A DNA stretch of 59,947 bases, counting the filler. It is 8 parts of 8 records of this genome, joined end to end, with 100 filler letters (N's around TTAATTAATTAA, not from the genome) between each part and the next. Parts side by side here need not be neighbours in the genome. Positions count along the whole stretch, not along the records: positions 44,901 to 51,257 come from SRR31147125_79098; 7 more parts are not named here. One strand, written 5' to 3'. A model generated the notes under the pieces. That model was not told where the DNA came from, made no database searches, and worked only from the letters and a program-made list of their open reading frames with translations. Below, piece after piece: positions 10,197 through 51,357 of the stretch. The translations under genes were made by a program, and so were the position numbers. Position 1 is the stretch's first letter. Each line of letters starts with the position of its first letter.

Positions 10197-10296
10197 NNNN
10201 NNNNNNNNNNNNNNNNNNNNNNNNNNNNNNNNNNNNNNNNTTAATTAATTAANNNNNNNNNNNNNNNNNNNNNNNNNNNNNNNNNNNNNNNNNNNN
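10197..10296. other. Artificial contig spacer
   Basis: 100 nt of N with central TTAATTAATTAA. Confidence 0.99.
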
Positions 10297-17850: not shown

Positions 17851-17950
17851 NNNNNNNNNNNNNNNNNNNNNNNNNNNNNNNNNNNNNNNNNNNNTTAATT
17901 AATTAANNNNNNNNNNNNNNNNNNNNNNNNNNNNNNNNNNNNNNNNNNNN
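17851..17950. other. Artificial contig spacer
   Basis: N run with TTAATTAATTAA. Confidence 0.99.
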
Positions 17951-20230: not shown

Positions 20231-21401
20231 TTATTTAGTTTCTTTTGCAATATCATTATATTTTTCAACAATGCGCTTAATAACTGTTTTTTCAGTATCC
20301 ATACCCCACATCTGTTTCATACAACTTTCAACACTTGTAGATTGTATCGTATTTTTAATTTTCATCGCGGCCTCATCATCAGCATTATCATAGCGCAAAC
20401 CAGCTACAACACCCTCTATAATACTATCTGATTCAACACCCTGACTTTCACAATATAACATAGCACCAACAAGCCTATCATTTACACCAAGTTTTCTAAT
20501 TGGGTCTTTTCCTACCCTAGCAACTGTGTCACCCAAAATTTCATTGCCAAATCTCTCTATTAAATCATATACATTAGCATTAATTTTTTCAATATCAATG
20601 TCGTATTGAACGTTTAATGCCTTAGCACTTTCTTTCATTGCTGCTTCCACTTGCTTCTTTATTTCATCATCGGCAATGCATTCATGTATATATTTATATC
20701 CTTTTTTCCAGCCAAGATAAGCGCACATCGCATGCCCCATATTGTGGATAAACAACTTTCTTTTTAATATAAAAACCAAACGGTGAAAAAGGCACTATAT
20801 TATTCAACTTAGGAATATCTCCGACAAATCCATCCTTATCTAATGGCAATTCATCATATGGTTCTACCCAACTCTTTAGGATATTCCCCTCTTTCATTTC
20901 TTCCGTCATAACAGGAACCATTCTACCAATAGAGGCTTCAACTAATCCCAGATTTTCATCCAACCAACTCTTATAATCGTTTCCCATTTCTTTCTCAATT
21001 AAATCCCGTAAATACTTATCCGCATCCAAAAGATTCTCACAAATAATGATATTTAACGGTCTATTATTTTGCTCGATTCTTTTTTTTATACCAGCACATA
21101 TTGGCTTTACAATACGCCCAAGCACATTAACACCAACAGCTGTTGCCATTATATCGGCATTACAGATTTCATCAGCTACTTTTTCTATATCCATACCATT
21201 AACAGCATAAACATTTTTAACAATAACCTCTTTTTGGTAAGCATTACAAACAATCTTTACTGGATATTGCTTTTCTGAATTTAGTTTTTGAACAACGTCT
21301 TTTGCTACGTCAACAAAGCAAACCTCATAGCCAGATTCACTAAACACTTTACCAATAAAACCTCTACCGATATTTCCAGCACCATACATAACTGCTTTCA
21401 T
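20231..21401 (-). CDS. Mannitol-1-phosphate 5-dehydrogenase-like protein; split by a frameshift near 20760
   Basis: YGAGNIGRGFIG, ATAVG, IICEN, RKLFIHNMGHA, RVGKDPIRKL; one extra A in ATTAAAAAGAAAG. Confidence 0.88.
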
Positions 21402-24698: not shown

Positions 24699-24798
24699 NN
24701 NNNNNNNNNNNNNNNNNNNNNNNNNNNNNNNNNNNNNNNNNNTTAATTAATTAANNNNNNNNNNNNNNNNNNNNNNNNNNNNNNNNNNNNNNNNNNNN
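24699..24798. other. Artificial contig spacer
   Basis: N run with TTAATTAATTAA. Confidence 0.99.
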
Positions 24799-30589: not shown

Positions 30590-30689
30590 NNNNNNNNNNN
30601 NNNNNNNNNNNNNNNNNNNNNNNNNNNNNNNNNTTAATTAATTAANNNNNNNNNNNNNNNNNNNNNNNNNNNNNNNNNNNNNNNNNNNN
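30590..30689. other. Artificial contig spacer
   Basis: N run with TTAATTAATTAA. Confidence 0.99.
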
Positions 30690-36734: not shown

Positions 36735-36834
36735 NNNNNNNNNNNNNNNNNNNNNNNNNNNNNNNNNNNNNNNNNNNNTTAATTAATTAANNNNNNNNNN
36801 NNNNNNNNNNNNNNNNNNNNNNNNNNNNNNNNNN
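36735..36834. other. Artificial contig spacer
   Basis: N run with TTAATTAATTAA. Confidence 0.99.
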
Positions 36835-44800: not shown

Positions 44801-44900
44801 NNNNNNNNNNNNNNNNNNNNNNNNNNNNNNNNNNNNNNNNNNNNTTAATTAATTAANNNNNNNNNNNNNNNNNNNNNNNNNNNNNNNNNNNNNNNNNNNN
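44801..44900. other. Artificial contig spacer
   Basis: N run with TTAATTAATTAA. Confidence 0.99.
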
Positions 44901-44945
44901 TTTTTGTCTTGCATGTATTCCATCCTTGCTTTTGTAATATTTTCA

Positions 44946-46298
44946 TTATGATTGCGCTGCTTGAGCTGTCAGCGCGGTTAGTGCCGAACGATAGCTTGCT
45001 TTGACCTGCTCGCTCTGCGGCGATGGTGTCATCGAATCAACAACGCTCAGGCTGTACTGAATATCCGCAGTTTTCACACGCCATGCAAGCGCGTTACTGC
45101 GCACGCCATCAAGGTAAGCAGAGAAATCCTCCCCTTGCCTCACCGTCATTACAGCCACGGCACAACATATCTCATCATCAAAACCGCGGCGGCGTAATCT
45201 TTGCGGTGTTATTTTACCATTGGCACAAACATCTTGCAGCAATGCCGCCGTCTTTTCTTTGGGATCGTCGAACATATCAGCGACAGCCGTAGCGTGATGT
45301 AAATACGGTTTGCCATCCCAGTCGAAACGCTGTGTCAACAAAAACGACGCAAAACGACGCGCTTTACCGAGTTGCCAATCGGCATGCGGTATATGGGTAA
45401 CCAAGCGATTCTTTCCGGCAAAAAGCAGAATCGCAATTACTGACAAGAATATGATGATATAGACCAGATAGCCGGGTTCACCAACAAAGCTGGTATCTGG
45501 TGCGTCTGAAATAGCGTCTGTATGAATGATGGCGTAATCAATCCCAAGGCCTCCGACGCTTAGATCCGTTACCAATCCACTCGAAAAGTTCCACATCGTG
45601 TGAATGGCGCATGCGCCAAGCAAACTGCCCGTTCGCAATGTGTACAGTGCAAAAAACACTCCAAGAAGAAATAAGGTGAGCATGGACAATACCGATTGAC
45701 CGCCATTTGCTATATGAAGCAGTGCAAAAACAGCGGATGATAGAATCACGCCGCCAAGTGCACCGATTCGCTGCGATATAAACGGCATCATATAGCCACG
45801 AAACAGCACCTCTTCCGCCGATGCTTGTACCACAAACGCAGCAAAATAGACCGCAACCAGCGGGGCGATCCCCACGTACTCAAACGGCTCTGTAAGTAAT
45901 ACGGGTACAATAAATATTGCATTTAACCCTAGCCCAATCAATAAACCCAGAGAATACTCTCCTAGCCATCGCCACTTCGTTATGCCCATGGCGCTGACTT
46001 TTTGCTTTTGCATAAATCGAACAAATATTATTGTCAGCACGGTTATGATCGCATTCGAGAACAGTATTGTAAGTATGAGCTCATGTGAAACAATCGTATC
46101 GAGCATATTGTTCATCATTTGCCCGAACTCGTTATTTAGAGGCACTGACGTTGTCAAATATATAACCAAATAAATGGCGAGCGCAATGCCATAAATAAAA
46201 TATATTAGCAAGCCCGTCATCACCGTTGCAAACGCGTTCGGGGCATATCTTCCGCTCGGCATCATCGCCTGTGGATACCGTAGTATGGTTTTATTCAT
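44946..46298 (-). CDS. CPBP (CAAX/Abi) intramembrane metalloprotease fused to a degenerate RelA/SpoT-hydrolase-like HD domain
   Basis: EEVLFRG, FALLH, HTMWN; C-terminal GKPYLHH..VA, AALLQDV, GFDDEI..AV, VKTADI; SD GGAGG before ATG 46298. Confidence 0.82.
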   Translation of the reverse strand: MNKTILRYPQAMMPSGRYAPNAFATVMTGLLIYFIYGIALAIYLVIYLTTSVPLNNEFGQMMNNMLDTIVSHELILTILFSNAIITVLTIIFVRFMQKQKVSAMGITKWRWLGEYSLGLLIGLGLNAIFIVPVLLTEPFEYVGIAPLVAVYFAAFVVQASAEEVLFRGYMMPFISQRIGALGGVILSSAVFALLHIANGGQSVLSMLTLFLLGVFFALYTLRTGSLLGACAIHTMWNFSSGLVTDLSVGGLGIDYAIIHTDAISDAPDTSFVGEPGYLVYIIIFLSVIAILLFAGKNRLVTHIPHADWQLGKARRFASFLLTQRFDWDGKPYLHHATAVADMFDDPKEKTAALLQDVCANGKITPQRLRRRGFDDEICCAVAVMTVRQGEDFSAYLDGVRSNALAWRVKTADIQYSLSVVDSMTPSPQSEQVKASYRSALTALTAQAAQS

Positions 46299-46455
46299 GC
46301 TGCCTCCAATAATTATAGTTAACATCCTATATATTACCATACATACGCAAATTTATATACGGCAAATTGTAAATTATCGGGTTATTTTGACACAATTGTA
46401 TACATGTATTTCTAATCGTTATATAATATTTGTATTCTTTTTATGGAGCGAATTC

Positions 46456-46809
46456 ATGACCAAGGTACTTCGACAAGATTATACCGCTATTGTTCGAATC
46501 AAGCTAAGCGCTTTATATTTGCTAAACGTCTCCGATTTGCTTTTTACACTACTTTTACTTTCCACCGGTTGCTTTATAGAGGCGAATCCCCTCATGGCTA
46601 TGTGCATACAAAATGGTTTTGCTTGCGTATTCTATAAGCTCATTACGCCAGCTGTGCTTCTTACAATCGTCGCATTACATTTGTGCACAGCGCCTCCAGC
46701 ACAGCGGTATCGATCGCACCTGCTCATTAACGCATTGCTTGTTGTGTATATCGGGGTAATGGTGGTGCATTTAGTATCGATTGGTGCCTATTGTATATTG
46801 ATTGTTTGA
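46456..46809 (+). CDS. DUF5658-like membrane protein
   Basis: LYLLNVSDLLFT..EANPLM..YKLI, three TM segments; SD GGAG. Confidence 0.7.
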   Translation: MTKVLRQDYTAIVRIKLSALYLLNVSDLLFTLLLLSTGCFIEANPLMAMCIQNGFACVFYKLITPAVLLTIVALHLCTAPPAQRYRSHLLINALLVVYIGVMVVHLVSIGAYCILIV

Positions 46810-46816
46810 TTATATC

Positions 46817-47190
46817 CTATTCAAATTGTTCCATTCGTTTTACCGCTTTACGGTTTGCTAAAAATGCAATGATCAGAAACGTAACATTGATTATCCACAT
46901 CATGACACGTTGCCAATAGGTTGCCACGTAATGTAAGTTCAATGAAATACTAAGAACGGTATGCAGTATTGCCGCAAAAAATGCTATAATGACGGGCATA
47001 GTCTGATTATCAAACCATCTGCAACTGATAGTCCTTGCAGGATGTCATTAGACGCCCTATATTGATGCTTATTTGGATTCGCACAAACGATGATAAGACC
47101 TACTAAAAATGAAAGAAAAAAGCCCGTAAAGTATAGCCCAGCAAAACTGTATCCTTTTTTCCTAGCGATAAAAGCGGGTATCCAGCGCAA
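46817..47190 (-). pseudogene. Fragmented small membrane protein
   Basis: Two overlapping hydrophobic ORFs (IPAFIARKKGYSF.. and IIAFFAAILH..), no clean start. Confidence 0.35.
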
Positions 47191-47319
47191 GACCTGCGTT
47201 TATACCTAAAAATATATAAATAATCAAATTCCTCCACCAAAAATATTATGCATTAGTTATTATATCTATTACATATGTGTTATTTCATTTTTTAATAATG
47301 GATGTCAATAAAATTATAC

Positions 47320-47348
47320 AAAAAAAGAATGCCCGAGCCAAGGCATTC
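47320..47348 (-). terminator. Rho-independent terminator after the Cys-rich peptide gene
   Basis: GAATGCC/GGCATTC stem followed by a T-tract on the minus strand. Confidence 0.7.
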
Positions 47349-47376
47349 AAAGAGGACGTTATTTGAGTCATTAGAT

Positions 47377-47601
47377 TTAGCAGCCGCAGCCTTGATTGCC
47401 GCCGAACCCGCCGCCGAACCCGCCGCCACAGCAACAGCATATCAGCAGTATGGGTAGTATGCAGTCCAGACTGTTGTTCCCCTGATTGCCGCAGCCGCAA
47501 CCGTCATTGCCGCAGCCACATCCCTGATTACCACAGCAACAGCATAGTAAAAGCAAAATGCAAATACAATTGTTTCCTCCAAAGCATCCGTTCATGTACA
47601 T
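47377..47601 (-). CDS. Small Cys/Gly-rich repeat peptide, probably a spore coat/exosporium protein
   Basis: 74 aa with two hydrophobic-CCCCG units and GCGC repeats; strong SD AGGAGGG; promoter and terminator present. Confidence 0.75.
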   Translation of the reverse strand: MYMNGCFGGNNCICILLLLCCCCGNQGCGCGNDGCGCGNQGNNSLDCILPILLICCCCGGGFGGGFGGNQGCGC

Positions 47602-47625
47602 TCCCTCCTAAGCATTTGATACTTT

Positions 47626-47651
47626 ACTATATGCGCATGCGGGAATATGGT
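47626..47651 (-). promoter_or_regulatory. Sigma-K-like sporulation promoter
   Basis: AC-N16-CATATAGT matches the sigma-K consensus AC-N16/17-CATAnnnT. Confidence 0.6.
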
Positions 47652-47718
47652 GCGGCAACTGTACCAAAAATATTTCAATTTAATATAATGATATTAGAAC
47701 GTACAAAAGGGTGATGCT

Positions 47719-48082
47719 ATGGAGCTGCAAACAGTTTTTAAAGCGCTGAGCGACGAAACACGTCTGCGCACACTTGCATTGCTCATGCGCGGTGAGCTTT
47801 GCGTATGCCAAATTGCAAGCGTGTTGGGCTTGTCACAACCCAGCGCATCCAAGCATCTCCACCGTCTGAGCGCTGCCGGTATTATTCGCTGCCGCAAAGT
47901 ATCACAATGGTGCTTCTATTCCATATGCAACGCGTTTAAGGCTGAGTATGCAGACCTACATGCTTTTAAATGCGCAATTTAAAAAGCACCGCGAATATAC
48001 TACCGACAGCGAAATATTAACTCAGATGATTGAGTCGAGCATTTGCTGTCGTGAAGTACTAGACAGAATGAAACCCACATGA
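47719..48082 (+). CDS. ArsR/SmtB transcriptional regulator; frameshift near 47965
   Basis: FKALSDETRLR, GELCVCQI, SQPSASKHL; the second frame continues to ICCREVLDRMKPT*. Confidence 0.85.
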
Positions 48083-48191
48083 TAGTCCCGCCTACCTACC
48101 TTCATGATTCTCTGTAATAAGATGCGATTTCGTGATAGCACCAATAAAAAAGCGCCTAGTTAGCCATGGCGCAAGCTATCTTATACAATTG

Positions 48192-48788
48192 CTATGGTCT
48201 GTCCACTGTCGCTTTGATTTGCGTACATACGCCGCCATTGCAATTGCTTTGCGACACACTGCAGGCAGCAACAAACGCAATCACATCCATACGCGCTCTA
48301 AGGGTCATGCAGTCCCCCGGCTTACTTACGGGCGTTTCGACACTTAGCGAACCTTCAGATTGAATTACCGTGCGCATAAAAACATTGAGCGGTTGAATAG
48401 ACGCATGCTTTCTCAAACCGTGGGCTTGCATTTGTTCGTTGATGTTGTCCAAGCAGTTTGGATGGTAGCCCACATGACCATAGAAGCATGCGAACATCTT
48501 ACAGCTGCAGCAAGGATGAAGTATGTCGTGTTCCCCCACATCGTCTTGCACGATATCAAACATCGCTCGATATCGATTGGAATACAGCACATCCCCCATC
48601 CCCATTTTTATTGAGTCAATGCAGGCAATTGTCGCGCCGGCAGAAAAAAACTCTGAAGAATCGTTTAGGTTTACAGCAAATAAACTGGCGACTTGCTGCC
48701 CTTGAACATCTTCAATCGTAAGGCTGTCGCCGCGCCGCAGAACAAATGAATGCCCCGTTTTAGGCTGAATAAGTACTTGCTCAATCAT
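48192..48788 (-). CDS. DUF1989 (urea carboxylase-associated / YcgI-like) protein
   Basis: DVQGQQVA, LYSNRYRAM, HDILHPCC, HPNCLDN, PLNVFM, SKPGD..LRARMD, AACS. Confidence 0.88.
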   Translation of the reverse strand: MIEQVLIQPKTGHSFVLRRGDSLTIEDVQGQQVASLFAVNLNDSSEFFSAGATIACIDSIKMGMGDVLYSNRYRAMFDIVQDDVGEHDILHPCCSCKMFACFYGHVGYHPNCLDNINEQMQAHGLRKHASIQPLNVFMRTVIQSEGSLSVETPVSKPGDCMTLRARMDVIAFVAACSVSQSNCNGGVCTQIKATVDRP

Positions 48789-48972
48789 AGACTATAACTT
48801 CCTCAAATCTTGTTTCTTTTCGTTTGCTCCAAATACGCATCATCAATGCTCCCGCCAAAGCTCACTATAGAAATAACCCATTATTCAAACGTTCAAACAC
48901 GAATGTATCGCCATCTTATTCTATAGCTTAGACTGCCAACGCGCGATCAGAATGACCTTACGCAACCAAATT

Positions 48973-49004
48973 AGGCGTACAGTCTCTATCAGTACGCCTT
49001 TTTT
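48973..49004 (+). terminator. Rho-independent terminator-like hairpin
   Basis: AGGCGTAC-N11-GTACGCCT followed by TTTTT. Confidence 0.6.
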
Positions 49005-49151
49005 GTATTCTTAAACAATTAGTGGGGCGTCATCACGTTCATCATCTTCCCCATGATCTGCGTCATCACCACAAAAATAGCACCATACCTGCGTATAGCG
49101 CTATTTGGCACCGCTCATGTTAGCGGTCATACATCCAACAATGTTCGATCA

Positions 49152-51257
49152 CTATGCCAGTCTTTTCTTTATGAGCAGGAAGTACAGCGCGACCGTAATC
49201 ACCCCAGCGCCCCCAAAGCCGATTAACAACCAGATAAAACCAGTCATGCCGGATTTGTCGCTGTTCGTCTGAGGGGCAACTTGCACGTCCACCATACCAA
49301 GCGGCGTGCCTTCACTGTCTAGCGCGACAATTTCCATCACACCGTCCGAGTTAAGATCATCTTTTCTGATTTCCAGCTGCACGATACCGTCTTCCCCAAT
49401 CTCAACGATGTCTCCATTGCCCATTTGTACTGACGTTGTCCCCTCTGGCAGGTCGTTCGCGTTGATTCTTACAAGCACTATCTCTGGGTCGGATGACGAC
49501 TGCTCCACTGTCTGCGGCATAATTGACATGGTGTCATCCCCTGCGTCGGGTACGTCCACCGCGTCTTCGACCGCGCTCTGCATCGGTTCTTCTCCATCCG
49601 CGCTTTGTGTGGGCGTTGTGCCGCTCCCATCATCGCCATTGGTATCACCATCGGTTGTACCGCCGCTTGAGCCACCGGTTGTGCCGCCGGTTGAACCAAC
49701 GGTTGTGCCGCCGCTTGTTCCGCCATTATCGTCAGTGTCGTCATCATCAGCAGCTGCTGGCACATCCACCGATATGCCGCACACATCATACGCACCGTCT
49801 GCATCCGCAATAATCACCGTAACGCCTTCGGATACCGCTGTTACTGTGCCATTGTCGTCCACCGTTGCCACGTCGGTATCCGAGCTGCTCCACGATATAT
49901 CCGCTTCACTCGGCGTCAACGTTGCCGATAACGTGGCCGTATTGCCTACAGTCATAGTTTTCGTGCTGTTGCTCATCGTGACAGCCGGGCTCTGCTTTTT
50001 CACAATAACCGCGCCAGAAGCGCTCACCCCGTCTGCCGTCGCCGTGATCAGCGTGACGCCCAGTGCTTTCGCCGTCACCTTGCCTACGCCGTCCACCTCG
50101 GCCACGCTGCTGTCGTTGACCGTCCACGTCACGTGGCTGTATGTTGCGTCCTGCGGTGTTAAGGTCGTGACAAACGTATCCGTCTGACCAACAGTCAGCG
50201 TAGTGGAATCCTTGGACAGTTCGATCTCATCGACACGTACAACTTCTGTCCGGTTTTCATACGTGAGACTGATATATTCCTCATCGCTCAACGTATACTC
50301 GTTCTCTACACACACGTAGATATAGTACGAGCTGGATTGCATTAGGTTATCCCCATCATCTTTGCCGTCCCAAGAAACGCTGTACATTCCAACGGTGTCA
50401 TATGGCTGTTGTTCGATCGTTCGCACAACGTTTTTAGAATCGTCGGTGATACACACCGTTACGATTCCCGGCTGGTCGATCTCATAGCTTATCTCGTGCG
50501 TTTCGCTACCCTCAAGAATATATGAATCTTCGGTATATACAACCACGTTGGGTGCGGCAATCGTGCTGAACGGGATCGAGTTATACTGTGCGTAATCGCT
50601 CGCATGCGAGTTCGCTTGTCCGTAAATGCGTACACTACCAGAGTTCTCAAATGCATTGGTTGCGATGCTGTGTACGCTGCTGAGGATGGTCACACATTCA
50701 AGCAAAGGACACATTGAAAATGCATAGTTATCAATCAACGTAACACATCCTGGTAAAATCACTTTCTCAAGACTGATGCAATCTCTGAACAAGCTTTCGT
50801 CCACAATGGTCAAGCTTTTGGGGAGCGTCACCGTCGTCAGCGAACTGCATTTATAAAACGTGTACCTGCCGATTATCGACACGCTGTTCGGTATGGTCAC
50901 GTTCGCCATCGAAGTGCAATTATAAAACACAAAATCGCCGATGGTCGTCACTCCTTCGGGTATCGTCAGACTGGTAAACCCTGTACACCCACTAAAAGCA
51001 GAATCGCCGATTGATTTCAAGCCGTCCGGCATTGTCACACTTGTAAGCGTATCGCATGCGTAAAACGCGTATTGGCCAAGCGTTGTCACGCTCGCCGGTA
51101 TCGTGTATTCGGTATTACCTAGTCCTTTCGGATATTGTATCAGCTCCGTTTTTTGCTTATTGAACAGAACATTATCCTGCGCAGAAAAGTTTGGATTGTC
51201 GGCGGATACAACGACGCTTACCATGTTGTCACAAGCGTAAAGTGGCGCTGCGCCGAT
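49152..51257 (-). CDS. Cell-surface protein: BspA-type LRRs, FlgD-Ig-like domain, two Big_2 domains, G/T/D-rich linker, C-terminal TM; 5'-truncated
   Basis: LTSVTMPDGLKSIGDSAF repeats, WDGKDD, WSSSDTDVATVD, TM followed by KKRLA. Confidence 0.88.
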   Translation of the reverse strand: MGAAPLYACDNMVSVVVSADNPNFSAQDNVLFNKQKTELIQYPKGLGNTEYTIPASVTTLGQYAFYACDTLTSVTMPDGLKSIGDSAFSGCTGFTSLTIPEGVTTIGDFVFYNCTSMANVTIPNSVSIIGRYTFYKCSSLTTVTLPKSLTIVDESLFRDCISLEKVILPGCVTLIDNYAFSMCPLLECVTILSSVHSIATNAFENSGSVRIYGQANSHASDYAQYNSIPFSTIAAPNVVVYTEDSYILEGSETHEISYEIDQPGIVTVCITDDSKNVVRTIEQQPYDTVGMYSVSWDGKDDGDNLMQSSSYYIYVCVENEYTLSDEEYISLTYENRTEVVRVDEIELSKDSTTLTVGQTDTFVTTLTPQDATYSHVTWTVNDSSVAEVDGVGKVTAKALGVTLITATADGVSASGAVIVKKQSPAVTMSNSTKTMTVGNTATLSATLTPSEADISWSSSDTDVATVDDNGTVTAVSEGVTVIIADADGAYDVCGISVDVPAAADDDDTDDNGGTSGGTTVGSTGGTTGGSSGGTTDGDTNGDDGSGTTPTQSADGEEPMQSAVEDAVDVPDAGDDTMSIMPQTVEQSSSDPEIVLVRINANDLPEGTTSVQMGNGDIVEIGEDGIVQLEIRKDDLNSDGVMEIVALDSEGTPLGMVDVQVAPQTNSDKSGMTGFIWLLIGFGGAGVITVALYFLLIKKRLA

Positions 51258-51357
51258 NNNNNNNNNNNNNNNNNNNNNNNNNNNNNNNNNNNNNNNNNNN
51301 NTTAATTAATTAANNNNNNNNNNNNNNNNNNNNNNNNNNNNNNNNNNNNNNNNNNNN
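51258..51357. other. Artificial contig spacer
   Basis: N run with TTAATTAATTAA. Confidence 0.99.

Follow-up and report, generated by a model that had tools for sequence, protein, structure and literature searches.

Locus and domain architecture

The window analysed here, by which we mean the whole stretch of DNA of 59,947 bases, consists of eight contigs joined by N44-TTAATTAATTAA-N44 spacers, and it is contiguous genome only within contigs. Its contig 44901-51257 (6.36 kb) carries, on the minus strand, a gene for a protein of 450 amino acids (aa) in which an intramembrane protease of the CPBP family is joined to a C-terminal domain that resembles the (p)ppApp hydrolase Aph1 in sequence and predicted fold, with several residues of the hydrolase active site replaced. 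The 3' end of the gene lies 45 nt from the left contig edge, and this contig alone is its true genomic context; because the window is made of joined contigs, genes on opposite sides of a spacer are not neighbours.

The open reading frame (ORF) listing gives an uninterrupted frame at 44946..46340 (minus strand). Its likely start is the ATG at 46298, with GGAGG 4 nt upstream; no such site precedes the in-frame ATG further upstream, at 46340. The features of the gene are as follows.

44946..46298, minus strand: the whole gene, 450 codons and a TAA stop (44946-44948), for a CPBP protease with a putative Aph1-derived pseudo-hydrolase
46303..46307, minus strand: ribosome-binding site GGAGG, 4 nt upstream of the ATG at 46298, read from the DNA
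45414..46298, minus strand: N-domain (residues 1-295), a predicted CPBP/Rce1-like glutamic intramembrane protease with eight transmembrane segments (PF02517, E 1.3e-19; hydropathy; model)
45798..45815, minus strand: CPBP motif 1, EEVLFR (E162-R167), invariant in 10/10 relatives and in 14/14 fusion proteins
45714..45728, minus strand: CPBP motif 2, FALLH (F191-H195), in 10/10 relatives, with H195 in 13/14 fusion proteins
45588..45602, minus strand: CPBP motif 3, HTMWN (H233-N237), in 10/10 relatives, with N237 in 13/14 fusion proteins
45399..45422, minus strand: juxtamembrane junction FAGKNRLV (residues 293-300), right after the eighth transmembrane segment, in 14/14 fusion proteins
44949..45398, minus strand: C-domain (residues 301-450), predicted eight-helix, Aph1-type small-alarmone-hydrolase fold, catalytically degenerate and cytoplasmic (7SMG match; model; topology)

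A first-pass annotation, made from the sequence alone, had proposed a single intact reading frame at these same coordinates with the three CPBP motifs, and this is borne out by the ORF listing, by the PF02517 match (70.7 bits against a Pfam gathering cut-off of 22.4, residues 161-252) and by the motifs themselves (E162-E163-x3-R167, F191-x3-H195 and H233-x3-N237), which are invariant in the ten aligned relatives. These correspond to the definition of the family in the accessible text of the CflP preprint (motif 1 EExxxR, motif 2 FxxxH, motif 3 HxxxB, where B is D or N), from which we also take the roles of the motif residues. All seven catalytic-motif residues are intact in 13/14 fusion proteins, including that of the window. 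An N-terminal motif, M-x-K-x-I-x-R-x-P, is conserved in the N-domain of the subfamily, and the junction motif FAGKNRLV is found in four CPBP-only relatives as well as in the fusions. A scan of the protein with NCBIfam returned CPBP models only, all far below threshold. In Foldseek searches with the full-length model, the only membrane-protein matches with probability 1.00 were Rce1 (4cad_L, E 0.033, TMt 0.52) and SpdC (6u0o_A, E 0.072, TMt 0.57), both of them weak. Every sequence test assigns the protein to the CPBP family, and its N-domain is presumably an active protease.

Hydropathy and the helices of the model agree on eight transmembrane segments with the N-terminus inside, the inside loops having 12 Lys and Arg and 3 Asp and Glu, and the outside loops 0 Lys and Arg and 9 Asp and Glu. 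This positive-inside count (12 vs 0) places the C-domain in the cytoplasm, as the first-pass annotation had supposed, so that both termini are cytoplasmic. The full-length model has a predicted local distance difference test score (pLDDT) of 92.9 and a predicted template-modelling score (pTM) of 0.89, values that, in a protein of two domains, suggest a confidently predicted placement of one relative to the other. In this model short strands are predicted at residues 3-6 and 300-303, and they fall within the two subfamily motifs MxKxIxRxP and FAGKNRLV.

The C-domain is an Aph1 homologue with a degenerate active site

A phmmer search against the PDB sequences placed the (p)ppApp hydrolase 7SMG first (E 2.7e-6, 110 residues ungapped), and the same kind of search against 1.84 billion representatives gave 3153 matches at E<=1e-3, 97 of them at E<=1e-10. 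The AlphaFold model of the C-domain (pLDDT 94.8) has eight helices, and Foldseek lists the four 7SMG chains before all others (E 2e-7, TM 0.84-0.90, rmsd 1.6), with Mesh1, PaSAH and the hydrolase domains of Rel proteins next; in the full-length model the tail matches 7SMG with a TMt of 0.91. The domain had been expected to follow the small alarmone hydrolase/Mesh1 pattern. The predicted fold is indeed that of the small alarmone hydrolases, and the nearest family is Aph1, not Mesh1.

The profile search that had been proposed for both halves of the protein gave a split answer, with PF02517 above its cut-off and the Pfam family HD_4 (PF13328) below it (14.3 bits vs 27.2) and visible only when the C-domain was scanned alone. 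The HD_4 threshold was reached by 0/12 other fusion proteins, the best being P0004 with 18.8 bits. As HD_4 stays below threshold in 13/13 members tested, the fusion is invisible to standard domain annotation. The relationship extends to the most divergent copies: a profile of the eight most degenerate C-domains aligned to an Aph-like profile (hhalign 98.7%, E 2e-16, 99 columns) and, searched against the PDB, also found 7SMG first (E 9.6e-5). Judged from these comparisons, the C-domain is a descendant of an Aph1-type (p)ppApp hydrolase, a homologue of that family and not a functional member of it.

Residues of the window protein were mapped onto Aph1 by the ungapped alignment, and the counts for each column are from 103 stand-alone homologues of <=200 aa.

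45336..45338, minus strand: L321 in place of Aph1 H19; H in 93/103 stand-alone homologues
45219..45236, minus strand: QDVCAN (Q355-N360; codons CAA GAT GTT TGT GCC AAT) in place of the HD..ED catalytic and metal-binding motif
45051..45065, minus strand: DIQYS (D412-S416; codons GAT ATT CAG TAC AGC) in place of D-L-x-[HD]-N, with the metal-ligand Asp kept and the Asn lost
Aph1 H53: replaced by Q355; H in 103/103
Aph1 D54: kept as D356; D in 100/103
Aph1 E57: replaced by A359; E in 101/103
Aph1 D58: replaced by N360; D in 98/103
Aph1 D110: kept as D412; D in 102/103
Aph1 position 113: Y415; H in 52/103, D in 39/103
Aph1 N114: replaced by S416; N in 98/103
Aph1 Y30: kept as Y332; Y in 93/103
Aph1 H33: kept as H335; H in 102/103
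Aph1 K107: kept as K409; K in 103/103

The alignment contains every substitution that had been read from the sequence beforehand, namely HD to QD, ED to AN, the loss of the first His and the change to DIQYS, and because these positions are near-invariant in the stand-alone homologues, the changes are far from chance variation. The window copy keeps three of the four metal ligands (H335, D356 and D412) together with D326 and Y436, and it lacks the HD histidine, the ED pair, the Asn and three basic residues that contact the substrate. According to the accessible text of the Aph1 study (PMC10083569), alanine mutation of the HD motif abolishes protection against a (p)ppApp-synthetase toxin in vivo, and six residues (D24, R96, D116, R119, K133 and Y134) make up the (p)ppApp signature. 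The window protein has 2/6 of these, with D24 and Y134 kept and with R96 changed to G, D116 to S, R119 to D and K133 to S. In the stand-alone homologues the basic positions are R at R96 in 79/103, R at R119 in 77/103 and K or R at K133 in 91/103; with all three replaced, three positive charges around the substrate are gone. From its sequence the C-domain would be a pseudo-hydrolase that does not hydrolyse alarmones.

The fusion recurs in a small family

We assembled 14 divergent fusion proteins, the window's included. The CPBP motif triad was present in two of the 150 best representatives, P0004 (455 aa) and P0108 (437 aa), both of which can be aligned with the window protein from end to end (36-37% identity). 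P0153, P0155, P0156 and P0157 (412-486 aa) came from a profile search, and a further protein from that search, P0154, ends after the junction. Among the matches listed in a pattern scan of GTDB there was at least one full-length member (L001), in a Christensenellaceae metagenome-assembled genome (MAG); another locus (L002) is cut by a contig end, has no N-terminal motif and was dropped. Scanning with the junction and a C-domain profile, we found the fusion in 7/401 sampled genomes of the order of this MAG (G347, G377, G120, G001, G256, G239 and G332), of which G332 carries two tandem copies. The G347 protein is a near-copy within the P0156 cluster and is not counted among the 14. The same scan of 401 genomes also picked up three CPBP-only genes that carry the junction motif, some 40 Aph-like genes standing alone, and long Rel proteins. 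In a class-level sample of 399 scored genomes, the fusion was found in the query genome itself alone.

Clusters at 90% identity have 1-4 members each, and the family is therefore small. A word-indexed protein search with the C-domain region (lengths 247-788 aa) found nothing, the exact window protein is absent from a collection of 15 billion proteins and from the ESM Atlas, and the matches in the latter are CPBP clusters only (scores 0.81-0.82). A scan of JGI metagenomes with the junction and C-domain profile gave 129 pattern stretches, none of them a relative. Two loci from a scan of IMG/VR match just 37 residues around the junction and are not members of the family.

The 13 other fusion proteins come from independent assemblies and align with the window protein across the junction. 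Over 44901-46276 the window is matched by a 1603-nt contig from run X1 (depth 4.6) without a single difference or gap; this run is probably the source sample, and the agreement excludes only an artefact of a single assembler and is not independent support. In that second assembly of the same run there is no stop or indel at the junction; either would, by the first-pass annotation, have refuted its reading. Its other two refuting conditions do not hold either: the C-domain matches the predicted fold, and the fusion is neither a singleton (14 proteins, 7/401 genomes of the order) nor under relaxed selection in the relatives (dN/dS 0.22-0.66). Only one DNA run, and no RNA run, is listed among the sequencing runs that contain this stretch.

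Phylogeny, active-site decay and selection

In a quick maximum likelihood tree of the 14 fusion C-domains and 60 stand-alone homologues (the first 60, by identifier, of the matches of <=170 aa), the fusions form one side of a branch with a Shimodaira-Hasegawa-like approximate likelihood ratio test (SH-aLRT) support of 94, and those nearest to the enzymes are P0004, the window copy and P0108. In the tree of the CPBP part, the 14 fusions and four CPBP-only relatives form a clade with a support of 99, apart from 11 other CPBPs. Within this clade the CPBP-only genes are interspersed among the fusion proteins, and the fusion label needs two changes. Both trees are quick searches with long branches, and from them one fusion event with a few subsequent losses appears likely.

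The active site decays in grades over the family, and 0/14 members keep the full site. P0004 keeps H19, D24, Y30, H33, the HD motif, K107, D110 and the HN pair, and only its ED pair is changed (to DG). In P0108 the HD is replaced by NG, and in the two G332 copies by AV and AD. In the nine other members a non-catalytic pair (YH, HY, YL or CL) stands at HD and E or Q at D110, and the loop from D24 to Y30 is deleted; to judge from the alignment, the whole pocket is gone in these 9/14 members. The sole exception to intact CPBP motifs is G332a, one of the two tandem paralogues (L116 7745-9202 and 9301-10785, both on the minus strand), in which H195 is changed to R and N237 to S, so that both of its domains read as pseudo-enzymes. 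In addition, G332 carries a member of the subfamily that is CPBP-only (L120).

The C-domain nevertheless evolves much like the protease to which it is attached. Averaged over 28 pairs, identity is 0.34 in the C-domain, compared with 0.38 in the N-domain. For six pairs of relatives, dN/dS (Nei-Gojobori) is 0.66, 0.26, 0.22, 0.24, 0.53 and 0.36 in the C-domain and, with the pairs in the same order, 0.35, 0.36, 0.36, 0.18, 0.34 and 0.41 in the N-domain. In three clusters at 90% identity, variable sites are no more numerous in the C-domain than in the N-domain (8/155 vs 23/300, 1/129 vs 5/283 and 1/191 vs 0/282). Purifying selection thus acts on the C-domain in these relatives, and we infer the same for the window gene. 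The columns conserved in fusion and stand-alone proteins alike are those of the core (A313, A317, V339, A352, L354, A380, Y395, A405 and V408), whereas the columns conserved in the stand-alone proteins alone are catalytic or contact the substrate; a third set is conserved in the fusion proteins alone (K349, G361, P365, E390, R398 and P403). No frameshift or truncation occurs inside the C-domain in 14/14 fusion proteins.

The C-terminal tails of the fusion proteins vary in length and composition. P0153, P0155, P0157 and both G332 copies have an additional extension at the C-terminus; four cysteines in it are conserved (CPxL..., one more C, and CxxC), and it has no Pfam match at E<=1. This extension could be a metal-binding site, and it hints at a cytoplasmic tail that serves as a platform for added regulatory parts.

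Gene neighbourhood and the remainder of the window

On the contig of the window, the neighbours of the fusion gene are a divergent DUF5658 membrane protein, two small membrane ORFs, a Cys/Gly-rich ORF of 74 aa, an ArsR regulator, a DUF1989 protein and a BspA-type leucine-rich repeat/Big_2 surface protein. The DUF5658 gene (46456-46809, plus strand, E 3e-17) diverges from the fusion gene across an intergenic region of 157 nt, and it is not next to the other family members examined. The 74-aa ORF (47377-47601, minus strand) sits between the two small membrane ORFs and the ArsR regulator; it is built nearly entirely from Cys, Gly, Leu and Asn residues, includes stretches like CCCC and a recurring GCGCGN, and has no Pfam or NCBIfam match.

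Seven family loci were compared, and no conserved partner gene was found among them, only near-identical pairs sharing neighbours (DUF6054 and DUF3558 at two loci, an FMN reductase at two). After the fusion gene in G377 and G120, two genomes closely related to each other, come DUF6054 and a DUF3558-like gene (L114 2946-3281 and L115 8485-8820), an arrangement absent from the other loci. Alarmone synthetase, toxin, secretion and bacteriocin genes were found neither near any member at the seven loci nor among the 41 ORFs of the window, and 0 of these 41 has a RelA_SpoT synthetase domain. We considered a dual immunity protein, directed at a bacteriocin and a (p)ppApp toxin, and rejected it, there being no toxin, bacteriocin or secretion genes near members and a hydrolase that is dead by its sequence. 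A PADLOC scan gave no match, and scans for promoters and terminators returned sites no more frequently than in shuffled sequence.

The spacers that divide the window are the following.

10197-10296, 17851-17950, 24699-24798, 30590-30689, 36735-36834, 44801-44900, 51258-51357: joining spacers between contigs

GC content ranges from 0.33 to 0.54 between the contigs. The first contig has genes for BamA (Omp85) and OmpH, typical of outer-membrane bacteria, in contrast to the relatives of the fusion gene, which come from the order of the Christensenellaceae MAG, that MAG included; more than one organism may be present in the bin. The contig at 36835-44800 is phage-like: it has genes for a cement protein and for a tail tube protein FII, an ORF of 478 aa with no Pfam match, and a tape-measure-like ORF reaching the contig end at 44800. 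A mannitol dehydrogenase (20234-21401, minus strand) is divided into two overlapping ORFs, with the Rossmann domain in one (20697-21401) and the C-terminal domain in the other (20234-20740), which suggests a frameshift or a sequencing error.

Interpretation and alternative explanations

We think it probable that the C-domain is a selected, non-catalytic cytoplasmic domain that regulates the membrane protease or serves it as a scaffold. Its hydrophobic core is conserved, and in the relatives purifying selection holds it to roughly the same pace of change as the protease; it would therefore be kept for a non-catalytic job. A CPBP protease and an Aph1-type hydrolase would have been fused, probably once, in a CPBP subfamily of the order of the Christensenellaceae MAG, and the hydrolase active site would then have been dismantled stepwise, the window copy being an intermediate. 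The domain would most likely form a rigid regulatory or scaffold module against the cytoplasmic face of the protease, where it could control access of substrates, recruit a substrate or a partner, or assemble oligomers. There are precedents for both halves of this proposal in the accessible parts of the sources: the inactive pseudo-hydrolase domain of RelA regulates its synthetase (PMC8012599), and bacterial CPBPs often work through protein contacts, as SpdC does with SagB (6u0o entry) and Abx1 and CflP with CovS (CflP preprint).

Several observations weigh against a regulatory or scaffold role. The C-domain model was built on an alignment of 103 stand-alone Aph-like homologues, and the fold match is not independent of the sequence homology. 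Four close CPBP relatives stop right after the junction and have no C-domain, so the domain is dispensable in some lineages. The highest dN/dS of the C-domain is 0.66, from few changes; no close DNA relative of the window gene was found, and the selection figures come from relatives. The window gene is known from one run, in an assembly of low depth (4.6). The predicted docking of the C-domain on the cytoplasmic face of the protease has the high pTM as its sole basis, and the neighbourhoods, which differ between members, give no hint of function or partner.

The first-pass annotation had suggested that the protein may sense (p)ppGpp or (p)ppApp and so gate a protease, and our results weaken that proposal, in which the C-domain would have kept the ability to bind (p)ppApp, (p)ppGpp or some related nucleotide, whether or not a metal is present, and ligand occupancy would turn the CPBP protease on or off. 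H335, D356 and D412 are three of the four metal ligands; D326 is the equivalent of Aph1 D24, the determinant of adenine specificity in the accessible text on that enzyme (PMC10083569); Y332, K409 and Y436 are also kept, the last being the Tyr that contacts the pyrophosphate in the same text; and the relative P0004 retains nearly the whole site. The loss of the ED pair with the pocket kept resembles engineered trapping mutants with structures in the PDB, such as PaSAH E74Q and MESH1 D66K with ligand, to go by the entry titles. Against this stand the loss of 4/6 signature residues, three of them basic (R96G, R119D and K133S), and the lack of an alarmone synthetase near the family loci or among the window ORFs. 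Since 9/14 members are without the pocket and their C-domains are yet under purifying selection, the conserved role of the domain is not nucleotide binding. Residual binding of a nucleotide or metal by the window copy is possible, without being the conserved function of the family, and a ligand-gated protease we regard as unlikely. A remaining enzyme, in which Gln would replace His as a metal ligand and give a weak phosphohydrolase acting on an alarmone or another substrate, seems very improbable to us. It could draw on the three metal ligands and the invariant Lys, and enzymes of the HD superfamily are chemically versatile; it has to contend with the simultaneous change of H53 (103/103) and of the near-invariant E57, D58 and N114, with the loss of H19 as well, and with the inactivity in vivo of Aph1 with its HD motif changed to alanine (PMC10083569, accessible text).

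If instead the domain were a decaying remnant, an Aph fusion once useful, perhaps for immunity to a (p)ppApp toxin, would have lost its function and be drifting towards deletion. The graded decay of the active site, the variable tails and the four close CPBP relatives that lack the domain and are interspersed among the fusions in the tree are all consistent with such a history. A drifting domain is less easily reconciled with a reading frame that is whole in 14/14 members, with hydrophobic core columns conserved in fusion and stand-alone proteins, with an identity (0.34) near that of the protease (0.38), with dN/dS <1 in 6/6 pairs or with models at pLDDT 93-95, and we hold decay to be decidedly unlikely. 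The short contig, its depth of 4.6 and the end of the gene 45 nt from the contig end would fit a fusion created by mis-assembly or sequencing error out of a CPBP gene and a separate small hydrolase gene; with 13 other fusion proteins from independent assemblies that align end to end, junction included, and a second assembly of the same run that is identical across it, the chance of such an artefact is practically negligible.

Relation to known systems and implications

The closest PDB match in both sequence and fold is Aph1 of Bacteroides caccae (7SMG; Ahmad et al. 2023, PMC10083569). Similar to Aph1 as the accessible text describes it, the C-domain is a compact unit of eight helices that lacks the additional ones of Mesh1, PaSAH and Rel, and the window protein keeps the equivalents of D24, Y30, H33, D54, K107, D110 and Y134. 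It differs in lacking the HD His, the ED pair, the Asn, H19 and 4/6 signature residues, and in its context: Aph1 is a soluble, single-domain tetramer that hydrolyses (p)ppApp rapidly (same source), whereas the domain described here is the tail of a membrane protease. With the CPBP/Rce1-like proteins (Rce1 4CAD, S. aureus MroQ, SpdC, Abx1 of group B Streptococcus, and CflP) the window protein shares eight transmembrane segments, the three motifs and weak fold matches, and several bacterial CPBPs are regulators or scaffolds of membrane proteins according to the accessible text of the CflP preprint. None of the described CPBPs that we compared has a domain of alarmone-hydrolase fold, and the window subfamily has motifs of its own, MxKxIxRxP and FAGKNRLV.

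The pseudo-hydrolase domain of RelA (Sinha and Winther 2021, PMC8012599, as far as its text is accessible) offers a parallel in that catalysis was lost and the domain retained to regulate its neighbour, a role that in the window protein would account for retention. The partner in RelA is a ribosome-associated (p)ppGpp synthetase, whereas here it is an intramembrane protease with no visible link to alarmones. Other Aph-like fusions exist: P0059 (678 aa) with the multi-transmembrane carbon-starvation transporter CstA, P0066 (526 aa) with an ADP-ribosylglycohydrolase, and P0020, P0074 and P0115 with a RelA_SpoT synthetase, P0115 having a RyR domain in addition. P0059, P0066 and P0020 keep the HD and ED motifs, as does P0003, and these other fusions score higher with HD_4 (E 3e-5 to 3e-10), while the CPBP fusions stay below threshold. 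The Aph-like domain is a mobile module that has been joined to other proteins.

We found no description of a fusion between a CPBP protein and a domain of alarmone-hydrolase fold in the open-access literature, and in the accessible supplementary files of the Aph1 survey there is no mention of CAAX, CPBP, Rce1 or intramembrane. Both domain families are already known, and it is their combination for which no description was found. Architecture databases would list the fusions as plain CPBP proteases with an unannotated tail.

A bolder proposal, which we put forward as quite unlikely, is that the window protein, and P0004 more so, is an alarmone receptor made from a disarmed hydrolase, one that would bind but not cleave (p)ppApp or a related 3'-pyrophosphorylated nucleotide and would signal to the protease. 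If this were true, the protease would cut a membrane or membrane-proximal substrate upon occupancy by the ligand, and the protein would be the first (p)ppApp effector and the first nucleotide-gated CPBP protease. The family would then record a passage from a signal-destroying enzyme through a sensor to a ligand-independent scaffold.

Returning to the domain as a non-catalytic part of the protease, the family is a natural series of pseudoenzyme evolution, from the near-intact P0004 through the intermediate of the window to fully degenerate copies, all under selection as seen in the relatives. It is also a handle on the cytoplasmic control of bacterial CPBP proteases, which are mostly without a known substrate or regulator, and it lets one ask cheaply whether any member ties the poorly understood (p)ppApp signal to intramembrane proteolysis.

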